A stretch of 61,587 nt of DNA, filler included, from Candidatus Woesearchaeota archaeon (GTDB lineage Archaea; Nanobdellota; Nanobdellia; Woesearchaeales; BM511), in the NCBI GenBank assembly GCA_023266675.1. It is 4 parts of 4 records of this genome, joined end to end, with 100 filler letters (N's around TTAATTAATTAA, not from the genome) between each part and the next. Parts side by side here need not be neighbours in the genome. Positions count along the whole stretch, not along the records: positions 1 to 15,577 come from JAHFPP010000031.1; positions 15,678 to 31,073 come from JAHFPP010000032.1; positions 31,174 to 46,560 come from JAHFPP010000033.1; 1 more part is not named here. One strand, given 5' to 3'. Position numbers: made by a program. Shown here one piece after another: positions 15,001-33,000 of this stretch; position 1 is the stretch's first letter; the number at the start of each line of letters is the position of its first letter.

Positions 15001-18000
15001 ATTTCTTTCAACAGGTCCATATTTATAGATAACCTTAAAATTTCCGCGGGTTTTATTGTTTGATATCACAAGGTCATCAATTATTACCTTTGCATGCGGA
15101 ACAAAGTCATTGTTCACAAGGTCAATTGGCATTCCTCTCGGATAAAGCCGTTCTTCCTGCTTTTCAAAAAGATAATTTTTGTTAACTTCTATTTTTTTAG
15201 GAAATCCTTGATCGCTGTTTAATTTTAAAATCCAGTTGAATTCAATTTTGTAACCCATTTTACACCGCTTTTGGTCCCTTGAAATATCCTTCTTTTTTGT
15301 TGTTTTTGCTTAGCATTAATGCTTCACTTTGCGTAAAACCTTCTTTTGGTGTATCTTCACGAAGGATGTTTCTAATTTCAATTGGTTGGATGGACATCTT
15401 GGTGTCTTTCACATCAACTTCATTTAATATCTCAAAAGATTCCAGTATTTCCTTAAATTGTGGAACAAACTTCTTAATTTCACCTTCAGAAAGATTCAAC
15501 CTTGCAACTTTTGCTACGTGCCTGATTAGTTCTTCATCCACCCTCATGGTTGTTTATAGAATGCACTTTATTTAAAANNNNNNNNNNNNNNNNNNNNNNN
15601 NNNNNNNNNNNNNNNNNNNNNTTAATTAATTAANNNNNNNNNNNNNNNNNNNNNNNNNNNNNNNNNNNNNNNNNNNNCAACGTAATCGTGCCATCCTTTA
15701 GTTTTGCCTCTGTAATGTCCTGAATAAACAACAGTGTATCTGTCAGCAGTTCCATGTTCTTTTTCGTGTCCACCGTTATCATAACAACGAATATAACGTG
15801 GAACTCCATTTGGAATAAGTCGAGCCTTGCGTTCTTCTTTTTTTGCTTCTTTTTTACTTAATGTCGTTGTTGCCATTTTAGTTTGTTTTTGTTATAAACT
15901 TATAGGTCAAGTAAAAGAAAAAAAAGAATTAGTCTTGTGCTTCTCCTTCTAATATGTCTGAATTAGAAAGCCCTTCTATAAATATTTGTGGCTGACTATC
16001 CAATTCACTCATTCCAATAATTTTATCCATAGTTTCCAATACATCTTGTACACAAGATAATTCAGGTTTTCTGCCTGTTGGAAAAATGTCCATTTGAATT
16101 TGAACGGTTACGGTTATTGTTTTCATATTTTTTTTTATTTACGTTTTACAAAATCTTTGGTATCAGTACAGAATTTTTCAGCATCTTTTTGAAAACAGAA
16201 CTCTTCAAGTACTTTATTGTTTGGCGTACCAATTTTGAATTGTGTAACTGCCACAGATTCATCCAAGAATATTCTCAGGTTATTTATCTGCTTTACTTTT
16301 TTTAATCCTCTAAAGGGATTGTATCCGATTTGTCTGCTCATAATATTATAGGTCAAAGAAAAGAAAAAAAAGAATTAAGCAAGATTAGAATAAATCGAAT
16401 TAGTGTGAACAATTTTACCATGCTTAGTAATTTTGTTTGGATTCCAAGGACTTGGAGCAAGATATTCCTCTTGAACTGTTGCATAAGTTTTAAACCCATT
16501 GCATTTATCAATAGCTTTTTGTTTGCTCTTAAAGGAATATCCTGAATAAATTCCTGCTGAATAATGAATTGTGAATTTTGCCATCTTATAAGTGATAACC
16601 AATTTGTTTAACATTTTTCTTTACTTCTTTTTCAAATGATGTACCTGCACAATTGTGTTGGTCTGCCTCATCAATAAGAATTGCAACAACGATTGCTTTT
16701 GGAATAAGCATTGGATTAGAATTTTCATCCCAAGCATCAATGTCTATTGCGCTTGAATTCAAAGCTCTGTCAACTTTAGCTTTTTGTTTATCAAAACTTT
16801 CTTTCAGCATTTTAAGTGCCAATTTTTTGATTTGTGCTTTCTTTTTGTCTGTTGCGTTCATGTCTTTGTTTTTTATTATAGGTCAAGGAAAATAAAAAAA
16901 AGAAATTACCAAGTCATTACAACCACATCATCCAATTTAAAAAATTCACAGATTGGTTGTTTACGAGATGGTTTGCCTGTTGTATATAAAATTCTAACAG
17001 CAACCACAGGAAATTTTAATTCAGCATCAAAGCCAAGAATTTTATATTGTTTTTTACCAATCTCAAAAAATTGTCCTTTTTTACGACCTGCAAGTTCATC
17101 AACGAGTTTTATATCTGAAAATTTTTTATCCATGATGTTTGTTTTTTATTATAGGTCAAAGAAAAGGAAAAAAAGAATTAGAATTGAGTATTATGTTCAT
17201 TGAATACTTTGAGTTTAACTAAGCTTATTTCATTTTTAACTTGAACAAATTTTTCTTCAAGTTCAGACAATAAATTTTTAGCCTGAGTTTTGCTTAATTC
17301 ATGTTGTTGTATTCTAAAATCAAAATCAAGCGCTGATTCTATTGTATGATAAATACCCCAACTTTCTTTTTTAACAAAAATTGTTTTATCAAAGTTTGCT
17401 ATTTCTTGTTTTAAATTACCAATAGCAAATTCAAGGTTACTATACTTGAATTTACAATAAGCTTGTCCAATGCTAAAGTTTTTAACCCAACTTTTATGCA
17501 AGTCATTTTTACAAATAGCTTTCAGTACATCCACGTGCTTACCAACAACTTTACTTGATAAATGCCCATGATATTCATGGTCTTGAAATTCCTGGATAAT
17601 TCCTGCCTTAACTGGAAAGCATATTGGTAAACCAAACATCCTGTCAATGTAAAAATCTGTATCAATGCGTTTTGTTTCCATATTGTTATAGGTCAGGGAG
17701 AACAGAAAAAAGAATCAATATTTTACTAACGGAATGAAATTTTCTTTTGGATAAGTTTCTTTAAATAAAAATACTTCATCAGATAAATCTTCTTCTTTAT
17801 ATGTAACTGCTTCGCCAACTTTCAAATTTCCGCCTTGAACATAAACTTCTCCTTGATAAAAATAAATCTTATCTTGAAAAATAGAATCAAAATAATATCT
17901 TGTCAAAGAGTAAATATCTTGAAAATTACTTTCTTTACTATCATTTTTAATTAACGTCATACCAACACTATGATAATAATCATCTTTATCTCTTTTAGTA

Positions 18001-30000: not shown

Positions 30001-33000
30001 CTATTTTGCCTTTCAATGCTTCTGCTAATATTATATAGTCTTTTTTACCCTCTTTTACGCTTTGTTTAACATACTCTAATAAAGCCCACGGTTTTTGTGT
30101 ATTATTTAATGTTCGCATTGCTGCAGACTTGTCCTTACCATTATATACAATACAATAAATTTCAGATTGTTTTGTTTCTCTACTACCTTTAAAAAGATGT
30201 TGCCCATCTAAAATAATATATTTATTTGTTTTTATATCAAATGTAACAACAGGACAACGCAATAAACCCAAAAGCTGCAAACTAATAGACATTTTTTTAA
30301 TATGACTACTATTGGAATCTCTATTTGTTTTATCAAATTGTAAAATTCCATCTTCTTTTATAAATTCTGAATATGGAACTGCAAGAATTAATAAATTAAA
30401 AAGTTTAAACAAAGTTGTTTCTAAAATTTTACCGAATTTAATTGTTTTGATAGTTTTCATAATGTTGTGGTTTTTAGTTTGTTTATATTATTATAGGTCA
30501 GAGAAAAGAAAAAAAAGAAAATTTCTAAATTTAGAATTTTTATATATCTTGTTTTCTTTTCATATTATTATAGGTCAGACAAAACAAAAAAAAGAAAATA
30601 CTTTCAGCCTGAACAAAAATATAACATACCAAAATATAAGGCAGGAGTGGATTAACCCTGACCCTTTTCGGTGGTCGACTCAAGTTGTAAACTTTCTGTC
30701 TTACATTATTATAGGTCAGAGAAAAGAAAAAAAAGAAAAGGAAAAAGAGAAATAAATCCCTTTGCCCATCCAAGCGGTTAACCACTCCGCAAACCAAAAC
30801 TAAAACTAAACCAACCAAAAAAAACTATTTAATGTGTCATTGTGAGGTTCAATGTGCAAACAACCGCCCCGTTTGCATTGGGACAACCTGTAAAAATCAG
30901 GTTTCACAATATTTTTAAGCAACTTATTTTCTTATACTTAAAGCTGCATTATATTTTTTTTCATATTCTTCTGCTATTAACGGATAACCTTCTTTTAATC
31001 TGTCCAACGTAGGCAAAACATCATTAACTGTCTTTGAGCCCGTTTTAAGTCCGATTAATAAACCTGTCATTTTNNNNNNNNNNNNNNNNNNNNNNNNNNN
31101 NNNNNNNNNNNNNNNNNTTAATTAATTAANNNNNNNNNNNNNNNNNNNNNNNNNNNNNNNNNNNNNNNNNNNNTTTTAGTGGGGTGCTTCTAAATTATTC
31201 AGCAATACCTGGAATTTCAATATCGCAGGAAAATGGAACATATCTTCTAAATTTATTATCAAACGGAACTGTATGGATTAACATTACTGTATACAAAAAT
31301 TCTTCATATGCAAATGAGATGGCTGATTTCAGCTCCAGAGGACCTGTTACATGGGGAAGTAAAAAAATAATAAAACCAGATATTACTGCGCCTGGTGTAA
31401 GCATTTGTGCAGCAGAATGGGCAAATGCATGGAGTGATAGCAGATGCATTGATTCAATGCACGTTTCAATATCAGGTACATCAATGGCAACACCACATGT
31501 TGCAGGATTAATAGCATTAATCAAGCAGAAAAATCCGACATGGACGCCTCAGGAAATAAAAAACGCGTTAAAAAATACAGCAGTTAATCTTGGATACGAC
31601 CATAACACTCAAGGGTATGGACGAGTCAATGCGACAGCAGTAATAACACTTACAGAAAAACCACCAGTAGCAACGCTTGACGCAATAGACTATTCAAGAA
31701 CAACTTTCAATATCAGCGGAAGCGCGTCTGCTTCATCTTTTACAAATTATTCATTATATTATGGAGTTGGAACTGAACCTTCAACATTTTTTCTTATATC
31801 AATTTCAAACCAAAGTGTGGCAAATGGAAATTTATATGCCAATTTTAATTCATTAACTCTTCCAAATGCAACTTATACAATAAAATTGATTACAAACACA
31901 ACAAATAATGTTGTCAGTGAAGACAGAGTACTTATAATAGTTAATACAACTACAACTCCTCCTTATTTTATAACTAACAACACGTTAAACTTAGAATACT
32001 ATTATCCATTAAATTATGATATAAACGCAACAGGAACAAATAATATAAACATGATTTACAGTATTAACAACTCGAATTTTAACATAAATTCTTCATCTGG
32101 TGTAATCACTAATACTTCTCTTCTTTCTTTAGGAAATTACAGCATGCAGCTTAACGTCACTGACACAGTAAACGTTAACAGTACAACATTTACTATAATT
32201 GTGGCAGACACGCTTAATCCAAATTTTTCAGAAGCAGTTCAAAATCAATATTTAGAATACAATTCAAATTTTTACTATGACATAAACGCAACTGACCAGA
32301 ACGGAAGAATAACTAGCAGCATTGTTTACACAATAAATAATTCTACAAATTTCACTATTAACCAATCAACAGGTATGATAACTAATATATCCTTTCTTGA
32401 ATTAGGCAATTTTCCGTTAACTATTTTTATAAACGACACAAGAAACCATATTTCAAATCAATCTTTTACTATTTTTGTAAATGATACAATACTTCCACAT
32501 TTTACGAATCTTTCAATAATTCATTATGTGGAGTTTGGAAACAATTTTTATTATGATGTCAATGGAACAGACAATTATCCTTCACTAGCAACTTATTCTA
32601 TTAATTCAAGTATTTTCACAATAAACCAAACTACTGGCGTAATCGTAAACAATTCATACCTAAACATAGGCATGTACTCATTAAACTTAACAATCACTGA
32701 TTACTCAAATAATAGAAACAGTTCAATCATAACGATAAATGTTTCAGATACAATTGCACCAATAATAAATGATACAAAAACAAATCTGACAATAAGTTTT
32801 GGAAGTGACGGGGGAATATTTTTAATGTGGAATAACGATACGCAAGTTGAACAATTCTCATATAATCTGTACAAAACAAATAGCAATATATTCACGTTGC
32901 CGCTAAATATTTCTCTAAAAATATTATCAAACACAACGTTACTTAATTACACTGACAATTCAAGTAAAGAAAAAAACTTAACTTATTTTTATGTATTAAC

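Follow-up and report, generated by a model that had tools for sequence, protein, structure and literature searches.

A probable Bacteroidota mobile element, binned with an archaeon, that places a promoter-like motif before most of its small genes and before a family of structured RNAs

Four contigs binned with a Candidatus Woesearchaeota archaeon (C3, C10, C68 and C74, about 56 kb in total) have in common one promoter-like motif and one RNA family, and are most likely parts of a virus- or plasmid-like mobile element from Bacteroidota that was wrongly binned with this tiny archaeon. What sets the element apart is an almost invariant putative promoter of 34 bases before nearly every small gene, combined with a multicopy, new structured RNA. 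The whole account, in which a Bacteroidota mobile element would carry a private promoter, its own ECF-type sigma factor and a promoter-driven RNA family, we consider probable, if by no means certain. A preliminary description had reported the motif and the RNAs, and these observations are confirmed; its interpretation was supported in part, for the foreign origin, the promoter and the RNA fold, and not for the phage identity and the unknown host; it also missed a transcription gene. The window, the whole stretch of 61,587 nucleotides analysed (four records joined with filler), includes contig C74, whose features are collected in Table 1.

Table 1. Features of contig C74, in window coordinates. 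Promoters, leaders and leaderless starts are predicted from sequence.
Feature	Position	Strand	Details
Contig C74, piece of foreign element	15678..31073	-	15,396 bp; 35 ORFs, 29 promoter copies
Putative promoter (-34 to +1)	30704..30738	-	would drive small RNA gene
Small RNA gene	30630..30709	-	family's best-scoring copy (covariance model 103.2 bits, E 5.5e-29); closing stem, two variable hairpins, conserved 3' hairpin loop GTTAATCCACT, U-rich tail
Putative promoter	30563..30597	-	only a 7-codon ORF behind; next promoter 77 nt on
Putative promoter	30486..30520	-	26-nt leader, ahead of ParB-like gene
ParB-like protein gene, 265 aa	29663..30460	-	phrog_12305, E 9.8e-14
Putative promoter	29599..29633	-	24-nt leader, ahead of 277-aa ORF 28742-29575
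Putative promoter	27926..27960	-	20-nt leader
Putative promoter	27395..27429	-	19-nt leader
Putative promoter	26632..26666	-	13-nt leader
Putative promoter	26081..26115	-	10-nt leader
Putative promoter	25697..25731	-	leaderless ORF 25176-25697, starting at inferred first base
Putative promoter	25142..25176	-	12-nt leader
Putative promoter	24754..24788	-	12-nt leader
Putative promoter	24427..24461	-	leaderless ORF 23858-24427
Putative promoter	23820..23854	-	9-nt leader
Putative promoter	23430..23464	-	no ORF behind
Second candidate RNA	23154..23430	-	non-coding unit of about 280 nt; stops in all three frames; GC hairpin and T-run at end; 42-nt patch 88% identical in relative L141
Putative promoter	23119..23153	-	12-nt leader
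Putative promoter	22786..22820	-	13-nt leader
Putative promoter	22150..22184	-	leaderless ORF 21932-22150
Putative promoter	21701..21735	-	leaderless ORF 21387-21701
Putative promoter	21351..21385	-	9-nt leader
Putative promoter	20910..20944	-	19-nt leader
Putative promoter	20387..20421	-	22-nt leader
Putative promoter	19515..19549	-	20-nt leader
Putative promoter	19209..19243	-	27-nt leader
Putative promoter	18709..18743	-	11-nt leader, ahead of 327-aa ORF 17715-18698
Putative promoter	17681..17715	-	leaderless ORF 17178-17681
Putative promoter	17144..17178	-	11-nt leader
Putative promoter	16871..16905	-	10-nt leader
Putative promoter	16341..16375	-	leaderless ORF 16135-16341
Putative promoter	15895..15929	-	19-nt leader, ahead of ORF running off contig end

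The exact sequence GACCTATAA occurs in 104-106 copies on the four contigs, against 2 on the other 79 contigs of the genome. In the window, TGACCTATAA with at most one mismatch was found 31 times where 5.39 matches are expected, a number that none of 100 shuffles reached; the 29 exact matches lie between 15900 and 30718, on C74, and on the minus strand without exception. Genome-wide, exact counts are 35 on C3, 7 on C10, 28 on C68 and 29 on C74, and of the other 79 contigs 77 have no copy and C9 and C40 a single one; the C9 copy is without a T-run and looks like a chance match. Conservation was calculated over 104 fully flanked sites anchored on GACCTATAA alone. These resolve into two boxes, TTCTTTTTT(T) at -33 to -24 and TGACCTATAA at -14 to -5, with an A at the presumed start: positions -33 to -25 (TTCTTTTTT) are 98-100% conserved, -14 to -5 are invariant and the +1 A reaches 96%, so the 107 copies and 17 near-invariant positions first reported are about right. 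Among 202 sites in relatives, the 135 that fall outside the scan pattern still have both blocks and the +1 A conserved at 95-100%, and their spacer (-23 to -15) is merely 39-65% conserved. The T-run, after which the motif was earlier said to lie, belongs to the conserved promoter as its -35 block and does not only mark where the preceding gene ends. Judged from its sequence, this two-box layout is that of a bacterial promoter dependent on a sigma factor, in which TTCTTTTTT as the -35 block and TGACCTATAA as an extended -10 block would stand at a fixed distance and transcription would begin at the conserved A, 13 nt past the G of GACC. The sole RNA run from the source sample gave no cover, and so we infer the start site and the promoter activity. 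Across 400 other Bacteroidota genomes the motif gave 5 single matches and a reversed control 9; it is not a host-wide promoter. Its boxes are also unrelated to the published Bacteroidota ones, which the part of the report cited here gives as TTTG and TANNTTTG at -33 and -7 (PMC6847099).

The motif lies within 80 nt upstream of 86 of 144 ORFs (non-overlapping, at least 30 aa, on the motif strand of the four contigs), namely 33 of 38 on C3, 6 of 26 on C10, 21 of 45 on C68 and 26 of 35 on C74, and almost each small gene would form a separate transcription unit. The two classes of motif-to-start distance described before, 4 nt and mostly 12-30 nt, were recovered at 4 nt and 11-31 nt. An ATG stands exactly at +1 in 27 of 106 sites, and 25 of these 27 open at least 56 codons, while only 24% of all ATGs open at least 50. 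It appears, then, that 25 genes begin at the predicted first base and that leaderless genes make up about a quarter of the total, in contrast to the transcripts of F. johnsoniae, most of which are leadered according to a section heading of PMC6847099. The remaining genes would have leaders of 7-27 nt. None of 60 leaders contains a Shine-Dalgarno sequence, G makes up 0-2% of positions -20 to -7, and A makes up 73-87% of positions -14 to -11, so that translation would follow the Bacteroidota way; the same A enrichment before the start codon, likewise without Shine-Dalgarno sequence, is described for Bacteroidota in the cited part of that report (PMC6847099). Ahead of the T-run, 20 of the 104 copies have a terminator hairpin, and in this fifth of cases the motif may double as terminator of the preceding gene.

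Several lines of evidence point to Bacteroidota as the host, which had been described as unknown. Relatives were found on short metagenome contigs and in four genome bins, and all 4 motif-bearing bins are Bacteroidota. Two long contigs from Bacteroidota chromosomes also carry element-derived gene blocks within their defence islands, with 2 promoters each and eight ORFs that are 26-63% identical to element genes; the leader signals agree. The archaeal genome is 95.9% complete and encodes TBP on C8, which bears out the earlier view that the four contigs are foreign to its chromosome. They were binned with this DPANN-type archaeon because their composition is similar. That they form one phage-like element, as had been proposed, holds for the unity, given the shared motif, the shared RNA and near-zero redundancy (only 3 paralogous pairs among the 144 ORFs); the ORF that runs off the end of C74 and the first ORF of C68 share 83% identity. 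The word phage is less secure, since the four contigs carry no capsid, terminase or tail gene, as already noted for the first two. Relatives amounting to about 105 kb gave none either when their ORFs of at least 90 aa were compared with Pfam (112 ORFs) and PHROGs (58 of the 112), and the archaeal bin holds no terminase.

We think it most likely that these contigs come from a large phage and represent its early or accessory region. A less probable reading, though one to be taken seriously, is that the element is not phage at all but a plasmid-like or integrative Bacteroidota element, whose small-gene block would be an accessory or anti-defence module under an autoregulated ECF sigma factor. The absence of virion genes throughout the searched motif-bearing DNA agrees with such an origin, as does the failure to find a relative in IMG/VR, and a self-activating sigma would suit a resident element. 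The element itself has two ParB-like genes, a DUF932 gene and Lar-like matches below Pfam's cut-off; its relatives have a resolvase, an SprT-like gene and a weak TrbC/VirB2 match under its cut-off, and on the two chromosomes the resolvase-bearing block has integrated next to defence genes that are DrmD-, type IIG- and DruE-like. The ParB-like genes, the resolvase and the existence of integrated relatives are explained equally well by a plasmid-like or integrative element. However, at Pfam cut-offs neither element nor relatives show a relaxase or a gene for type IV secretion, tRNA genes are present (four on C68, one in a relative), and 15 of the 144 ORFs match PHROG families. Among GenBank phages, crAss-like phages give the best match of the sigma factor by identity (31%, E 1e-12) and of DUF932 by E-value (37%, E 6e-55), DUF932 matches 494 phage against 118 plasmid records, and a strong promoter for each tiny gene is typical of virulent-phage early regions.

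The preliminary description had found no RNA polymerase gene and overlooked a transcription gene that is present, an ECF-type sigma factor on C10 (5779-6498) with sigma regions 2 and 4 only. Its best solved match is the ECF factor SigW of B. subtilis (PDB 5wuq, E 2.6e-21), and a homologue with 50% identity is encoded on a motif-bearing relative contig, L151; in both cases (2/2) the motif lies directly before the sigma gene. Most likely, the promoter would be read by the host core RNA polymerase with the element's own sigma, which would thereby stand under positive feedback. Sigma and promoter are linked by co-occurrence and geometry only. Autoregulated ECF (group 4) regulons are similar in their two-domain sigma, strict bipartite promoters of fixed spacing and self-promoted sigma gene. 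Cellular ECF regulons are small and restrained by an adjacent anti-sigma factor, whereas here the regulon would be nearly the whole element and no anti-sigma was recognisable, the sole candidate being a conserved acidic 88-aa neighbour.

A different reader of the promoter, such as an alternative sigma of the host, another sigma of the element or an RNA polymerase encoded on unassembled parts, is in our judgement unlikely but worth weighing. A sigma whose gene depends on the promoter it reads cannot by itself set off a lytic cycle, and this bootstrapping problem arises here; moreover, the element is incomplete, and a relative (L170) has a second, distant sigma-like gene. The chromosomal islands retain the promoter without the element sigma, the best match in each host being an ECF factor of 28-30% identity. 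On the other hand, promoters of single-subunit polymerases are contiguous, unlike this bipartite -35/-10 arrangement with variable spacer, the sampled host genomes make no other use of the motif, and no transcription gene but the C10-type sigma was found linked to it in two lineages. An element-encoded sigma as reader has a parallel in coliphage phiEco32, where, in the portion of the report cited, gp36 is a distant sigma-70-family factor with a private consensus unused by the host holoenzyme (PMC12276001). There, host sigma-70 serves the early genes, and a single short consensus with its centre near -11.5 is common to the middle and late promoters; our element differs in its two long blocks (10 + 10 conserved positions), in its copy number of over 100 within 56 kb, with one copy for each small gene, and in the position of its sigma gene behind the motif, and a gp79-like partner was not identified.

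The same promoter would also drive RNAs of 63-84 nt. All seven copies first described were confirmed, each with the motif before it (contig coordinates C3 3127-3205(+), 8090-8168(+), 9749-9827(-) and 4260-4338(-), C10 606-684(-), C68 11105-11172(-), C74 14954-15034(-)); the two minus-strand C3 copies have the promoter variant CGACCTATAA. A covariance model found 24 copies at E<=0.01 in 242 kb, these 7 and 17 in relatives, every one behind the motif. The four-helix fold proposed before gained support from covariation, with 81.2% of cells paired over the 24 copies against 31-50% when partners are slid, although the alignment was fitted to the model and leans towards structure. The covariation score is 0.155 against 0.073 (reached in 0 of 500 shuffles), 9 pairs have changed on both sides, and hairpin 1 is compensatory in 4 of 5 pairs. 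The closing helix starts at about +1 and, since its 5' strand lies next to the promoter, has no genuine covariation, and the outer position of the 3' hairpin lacks a standard pair in 10 of 24 copies. As reported earlier, no Rfam family matches, the tRNA model included, and ARAGORN made no call. The RNA resembles tRNAs and tRNA-like RNAs in its length (about 75 nt), paired ends and three internal hairpins, but differs in helix and loop sizes, in the 11-nt loop of its 3' hairpin and in ending with a U-tract rather than CCA. The family is real and new, and its members are probably expressed; the conserved GC hairpin and U-tract would end transcription, and the product may be an abundant trans-acting RNA with the invariant loop as recognition site.

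That the unit is a mere promoter-plus-terminator insulator, functionless as RNA, strikes us as improbable. Its terminal hairpin and U-tract would serve that role, copies are found at the edges of blocks, often paired convergently around conserved genes, and a search for targets returned full loop complements only in the reverse strands of other copies. An insulator would not account for an 11-nt loop and flanks that are near-invariant in 24 copies while the upstream stems vary with compensatory changes, nor for a 3' end complementary to the 5' end, and the element's ordinary terminators are unrelated in sequence.

Rather doubtful, too, is that the repeated unit serves chiefly as a seam where recombination swaps gene cassettes, conserved by gene conversion and not by protein recognition. 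Gene products are 30-85% identical between relatives and the motif is nearly invariant, assemblies break at it, and single promoter-gene cassettes occur in other contexts. The PeSLs of T4-type phages are likewise composite terminator-promoter units ahead of small, variable genes (PMC4122927; PMC2839356), conserved while the genes differ, and the cited part of one report proposes them as points of modular genetic exchange (PMC4122927). PeSLs as described there combine near-consensus host sigma-70 -35/-10 boxes at N17 spacing with a stem-loop and a Shine-Dalgarno site (PMC4122927), whereas the element's boxes differ from the Bacteroidota consensus, its hairpin is confined to the minority of copies given above, and it has leaderless genes and no Shine-Dalgarno site. 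Gene conversion would keep the spacer too, yet relatives keep just the two blocks and +1; the motif's orientation, its constant spacing to start codons and its presence ahead of RNA genes all mark a transcription signal. The roles of seam and promoter are compatible.

Finally, a virus or plasmid of the archaeon itself, with TATA/BRE promoters followed by oligo-T terminators, is very improbable: the binning, a tetranucleotide correlation of 0.96-0.98 with the archaeal genome, the TATA-like core and T-runs, and 35 genes that start 18-27 nt after the presumed start site would fit it, but transcription begins about 25 nt past a TATA box, for which 46 of 81 genes start too close (4-17 nt past the core, or 0-13 nt past the presumed start site), and this reading is contradicted by the sigma-70 family gene linked to the motif and by the relatives in Bacteroidota bins and chromosomes.

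In the window, which joins C73, C74, C75 and C76 through runs of N, TGACCTATAA occurs 31 times when up to one mismatch is allowed, against 5.39 copies expected, and none of 100 shuffles reached 31. The exact copies number 29, and every one of them lies on the minus strand of C74. Across the bin (1.22 Mb in 83 contigs, 95.9% complete and archaeal, with two TBP matches on C8), exact copies amount to 35 on C3, 7 on C10, 28 on C68 and 29 on C74, always on one strand per contig; the rest of the bin holds one on C9 and one on C40. The C9 copy was rejected as a genuine site, as it lacks a T-run and can be put down to chance. 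These counts bear out the preliminary description in holding that the motif is real and confined to these four contigs, the pieces of a foreign element of about 56 kb. Its observation as a whole was confirmed, whereas its interpretation found support only in part. We then counted conservation on sites anchored on GACCTATAA alone, of which 104 have full flanks. With the inferred start A taken as +1, positions -33 to -25 (TTCTTTTTT) are conserved at 98-100% of these sites, -14 to -5 are invariant, and the A lying 13 nt past the G is conserved at 96%. A motif copy stands at most 80 nt upstream of 86 of the 144 ORFs on the motif strand (non-overlapping, at least 30 aa). The four contigs share just three paralogous pairs and are therefore nearly non-redundant. 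Of the eight contig ends, three have a motif copy no more than about 60 nt away, and public contigs from the source sample also end at such copies, so that the element was fragmented in assembly because the motif is repeated. The features discussed here are collected in the table.

Coordinates of the contigs, genes and other features of the element, its relatives and the defence islands
Feature	Location	Description
Contig C73	window 1-15577	archaeal
Contig C74	window 15678-31073	contig that the finding concerns
Near-empty unit	window 30521-30597 (-)	motif copy with nothing but a 7-codon ORF behind it; next promoter 77 nt on
Candidate second non-coding RNA	window 23154-23430 (-)	about 280 nt after a motif copy; stops in all frames; GC hairpin plus T-run at end
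ECF-type sigma gene	C10 5779-6498	239 aa; sigma-70 regions 2 and 4 (Pfam); PHROG sigma factor
Acidic 88-aa protein gene	L002:4909-5175 (-)	near the sigma gene; product very acidic
Second, distant sigma-like gene	L170:782-1441 (-)	PHROG sigma factor, E 7e-17
Conserved 24-26-aa ORF	L001:9598-9672 (+), L186:3733-3813 (+)	own promoter and terminator; just past DUF932 in both elements
tRNA genes Met, Glu, Glu	L003:4073-4512 (+)	on C68, strand opposite every protein gene
TANNTTTG-like Bacteroidota-type box	L003:3975-3995 (+)	about 60 nt upstream of the C68 tRNA-Met; single instance
Defence island with element-derived block	L184 (G006:C32:384000-400000); L185 (G007:C34:86000-100000); L196, L198	two private promoters
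97-nt tRNA call (ARAGORN)	window 4685-4781 (-)	archaeal C73; identity unknown; four-base anticodon
693-aa ORF with Sigma70_r2	L188:13818-15899 (-) (G000:C9)	60.9 bits

When metagenome contigs were scanned with a strict version of the motif, 52 stretches matched. The majority are contigs of 1-5 kb assembled from sediment, groundwater and microbial mats, and many of them have 2-4 copies. On the 47 contigs of these relatives, 105 kb in all, there are 202 GACCTATA sites. At 135 sites of the relatives lying outside the scan pattern, the blocks at -33 to -24 and -14 to -5 stay 95-100% conserved and the A 98%, against only 39-65% for the nine-position spacer between the blocks, and all 135 align without any length variation. 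Two boxes at a fixed distance and a conserved purine therefore give the layout of a -35, -10 and start-site promoter, and this anatomy points to a promoter of the sigma type. An ATG falls exactly at the conserved A at 27 of 106 sites, and 25 of these 27 open 56-247 codons, whereas ATGs in general on these strands open at least 50 codons in only 24% of cases. The A is kept also at sites where no start codon includes it, the small RNA's closing helix starts at it, and its distances to both boxes are normal for bacterial promoters. On these grounds we infer that transcription starts at the conserved A 13 nt past the G. Measured from there, leaders fall into classes of 0 nt (23 ORFs), 7-13 nt (23) and 18-27 nt (35). 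A hairpin (dG <= -5) ends at the T-run at 20 of the 104 sites versus 90 of 1000 random windows, and at a minority of sites the motif therefore appears to serve as an intrinsic terminator too; the T-run is more than just the end of the preceding gene. The metatranscriptome of the source sample yielded one spurious matching piece, which carries no weight either way on expression.

From the linkage of sigma gene and motif, from the geometry of the boxes and because the motif is not host-wide, we infer that it is read by the element's own ECF-type sigma factor, encoded on C10, with positive feedback. This protein matches Sigma70_r2 at 36.9 bits (cut-off 24) and Sigma70_r4_2 at 29.9 bits (cut-off 25.7), and Pfam finds no region 3 in it. 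A profile built from it and 12 homologues matches ECF factors across both domains (SigW, SigH and SigE chains), the best match being B. subtilis SigW (E 2.6e-21). A homologue 50% identical to it is found on the motif-bearing relative L151, where it adjoins homologues of the C10 neighbours, and the sigma ORF has the motif immediately upstream in C10 as well as in L151. Three features of an ECF regulon are present, namely a factor with regions 2 and 4 only, bipartite boxes at a fixed distance with an unconserved spacer and a promoter of its own before the sigma gene. Searching 400 other Bacteroidota genomes for the T-run plus core pattern returned 5 single matches versus 9 for the reversed control, and on this count the hosts do not use the motif as a general signal; the consensus promoter published for Bacteroidota is given as TTTG / TANNTTTG (PMC6847099). 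Homologues of the C10 sigma form 28 clusters at 47-60% identity on contigs of up to 135 kb, and the bins concerned include ones labelled Ignavibacteria and Pacebacteria, which again points to misbinning.

Pfam detected no anti-sigma family among the ORFs of the four contigs. The acidic 88-aa protein may be an anti-sigma or a co-factor; its identity is 58-61% in L151, where it adjoins the sigma gene, and in the relative L139, in which the sigma gene was not detected. The ESM Atlas offered nothing usable for it or for a 191-aa protein flanked by RNA genes. The second sigma-like protein, from the relative L170, shares 21% identity with the C10 family (hhalign probability 92%) and no counterpart of it was found on C3, C10, C68 or C74. 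The ORF at C68 1780-2352 was considered as a sigma candidate and rejected, since it is not sigma-like.

The host, which the preliminary description had left as unknown, can now be narrowed, as several lines point to Bacteroidota: the leaders, the labels of the bins, phage matches, islands in two chromosomes and, as a single instance, the TANNTTTG-like box ahead of the C68 tRNA-Met gene. A Shine-Dalgarno sequence occurs in 0 of 60 leaders; in leadered genes G makes up 0-2% at -20 to -7 and A has its maximum, 73-87%, at -14 to -11. An A-rich leader without Shine-Dalgarno sequence is the pattern reported for Flavobacterium johnsoniae and its phylum (PMC6847099). Four genome bins contain the motif, and each bears the label Bacteroidota, Bacteroidetes or Bacteroidia; a single 11-kb contig of a Bacteroidota bin carries about 31 copies. 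Among GenBank phages, the best match of the sigma by identity is a crAss-like phage (31%, E 1e-12), Prevotella phages account for 15 of the 71 records that it matches, and the best phage match of DUF932 by E-value is crAssphage (37%, E 6e-55). The crAss-like phage cr10_1 was tried as a parallel and set aside, for although its sigma gene lies among small genes that all share one strand, the 16 kb examined around that gene show no high-copy motif. Searching the literature on crAss-like phages with promoter terms brought up no report of such a motif.

We rate the chance that the element is a phage as slightly better than even. Speaking for this identity are five tRNA genes (four on C68, one in a relative), PHROG matches in 15 of the 144 ORFs and the occurrence of DUF932 in 494 phage versus 118 plasmid records. 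One strong promoter per tiny gene, an arrangement typical of the early regions of virulent phages, was also counted for a phage. A mobile element of another kind is distinctly less probable, though still a serious contender. In its favour, no virion gene (capsid, portal, terminase) was found among the 144 ORFs of the element's 56 kb or in the relatives' 105 kb (ORFs of at least 90 aa; Pfam on 112 and PHROGs on 58 of these), Terminase_6N and Terminase_6C are absent from the bin, and queries of IMG/VR with the motif, the RNA and three proteins returned no relative. ParB-like genes, a resolvase and the integrated derivatives likewise speak against a phage. Since the element is incomplete, a phage is compatible with the absence of virion genes, and since the relatives were found through the motif, their sample is biased to motif-rich regions. 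Genes for a relaxase, coupling protein or type IV secretion were not found at Pfam cut-offs, a result subject to the same caveat of incompleteness; one TrbC/VirB2 match scored 23.5 bits, under the cut-off of 27.9. Of the earlier designation as a phage-like element, the foreign element with a shared motif stands, and the phage identity is slightly more probable than not.

In IMG/VR, the motif 15-mer gave single chance matches only, the T-run plus core pattern three single sites, and the 3' module of the small RNA 0 matches. Scans with the sigma, the sigma alignment and a 353-aa protein found no close relative there. Of the three single sites, two (T-run plus TGACCTATAA) directly follow a tRNA gene; they come from unrelated viral contigs of one sample (L122, L124) without further copies. 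In the plasmid database the only matches of the sigma are generic ECF factors (26-32% identity), so that this comparison does not separate the alternatives. The rest of the element was not found in the bin by tetranucleotide profile or by terminase families.

The motif precedes all seven copies of the small RNA in the bin, as had been described, and also 18 homologues found by pattern in the relatives' loci. After simple pattern searches, a covariance model was built from 10 copies and run against 242 kb comprising the element, its relatives, the islands and the whole window. It returned 24 matches at E<=0.01, none of them in the islands or on archaeal contigs. The 3' module is almost invariant: a GC stem bears the loop GTTAATCC(A/G)C, and its returning strand is followed by CTTATA and a U-tract. 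The GC hairpin and U-tract end the RNA copies. The 5' part is variable, with about five types. In the alignment, which leans towards the model that it was fitted to, 81.2% of cells are paired versus 31-50% with slid partners. The covariation score is 0.155 versus 0.073, a value that 0 of 500 shuffles reached, and nine pairs have changed on both sides, a number that 13 of 500 shuffles also reached. Support for hairpin 1 is good, with compensatory changes in 4 of its 5 pairs, and hairpin 2 is supported by stem sequences that differ between RNA types. The closing stem is conserved and uninformative because its 5' strand is promoter-proximal, and the outer position of the 3' hairpin forms no standard pair in 10 of 24 copies. 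A promoter and a terminator of its own and a conserved fold with compensatory changes mark the small RNA, as judged from its sequence, as a structured RNA gene. Rfam calls none of the RNA copies, in agreement with the preliminary description, and relaxed thresholds gave nothing consistent for seven of them (one from the window, six from relatives).

Two gene orders around the small RNA recur. On C3 and on the 11-kb contig of the Bacteroidota bin, an RNA gene is followed by a 49-aa ORF, DUF932, the conserved 24-26-aa ORF with its terminator and a convergent RNA gene; on C3 and a sediment contig, an RNA gene and a convergent RNA gene enclose a 191-aa gene. Our working reading is that the small RNA acts in trans as an abundant RNA whose loop would be the recognition site. 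A search for targets found none: full loop complements on the element occur only as the reverse strands of other copies, and the 3' module was not found in the genomes G004, G006 and G007. The main rival to a trans-acting RNA is that it serves as an insulator only. A tRNA can be rejected, as ARAGORN and Rfam call only the genuine C68 tRNAs and no RNA copy. The family, which is absent from Rfam, recurs in sediment, groundwater and microbial-mat metagenomes and would be a new abundant mobile-element RNA. The unit at window 23154-23430 is a candidate for another non-coding RNA that the element encodes; a 42-nt patch of it is 88% identical in the relative L141.

Private promoters of phage-borne sigma factors are already known, for example those of phiEco32 gp36 (PMC12276001), as are composite terminator-promoter cassettes ahead of small variable genes, the PeSLs of T4-type phages (PMC4122927). 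The upstream stem-loop of PeSLs is a minority feature here (20/104 sites), and their host-consensus boxes and Shine-Dalgarno sequence are not matched, given boxes that differ from TTTG / TANNTTTG and leaders devoid of such sites. Compared with both systems, the element has a higher copy number and strictness of its motif, an ECF-type factor with self-activation, no Shine-Dalgarno sites, a quarter of its genes leaderless, a Bacteroidota host and an associated RNA family. A full-text literature search for the 9-mer core gave no paper on the motif among the matches listed, which were unrelated uses such as primers. The element appears to be a known type of system in a new form, plus a new RNA family that is unexplained. 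If so, its transcriptional autonomy would be extreme, with more than 100 near-identical promoters, one per gene, served by one small sigma. To our knowledge, the promoters of the phylum Bacteroidota are unlike those of all others, and the element would supply a ready-made orthogonal sigma-promoter pair for it, as well as a naturally occurring set of messages that lack leaders, in a phylum whose mapped transcripts are mostly leadered. Because the motif is repeated, such elements assemble as mere 1-5-kb fragments and are wrongly binned, here with an archaeon and elsewhere in Pacebacteria and Ignavibacteria bins, which matters for the reading of DPANN or CPR genomes.

Two long chromosomal contigs of Bacteroidota (547 kb and 136 kb) contain two motif copies each. 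Near these promoters lies a DUF932 protein 57% identical to that of the element, and eight island ORFs in all are akin to genes of the element or its relatives (26-63% identity). In both chromosomes this block adjoins a UvrD/GajB-like helicase, a DruE-like helicase, a type IIG/DrmMI-like enzyme and a DrmD-like SNF2 helicase, and the same aminotransferase gene lies beside it; the islands also carry DUF5131 (= PDC-M41B), HipA or Fic. The element's sigma was not found in either island genome, where the best match is 28-30% identical. The promoter-bearing island genes could be relics or could be wired to respond to an incoming sigma. A more far-reaching joint reading, which we consider improbable, is that the promoter is shared by element and hosts and that the island genes would stay silent until an infecting sigma arrives, making them an infection sensor or a satellite-like hitch-hiker, with the small RNA as an abundant decoy or guide of a new mobile-element RNA class.

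Two observations concern archaeal contigs of the bin. The tRNA called by ARAGORN on C73 may be intron-bearing. The 693-aa ORF with a Sigma70_r2 match, odd for an archaeon, lies on an otherwise ordinary archaeal-bin contig.
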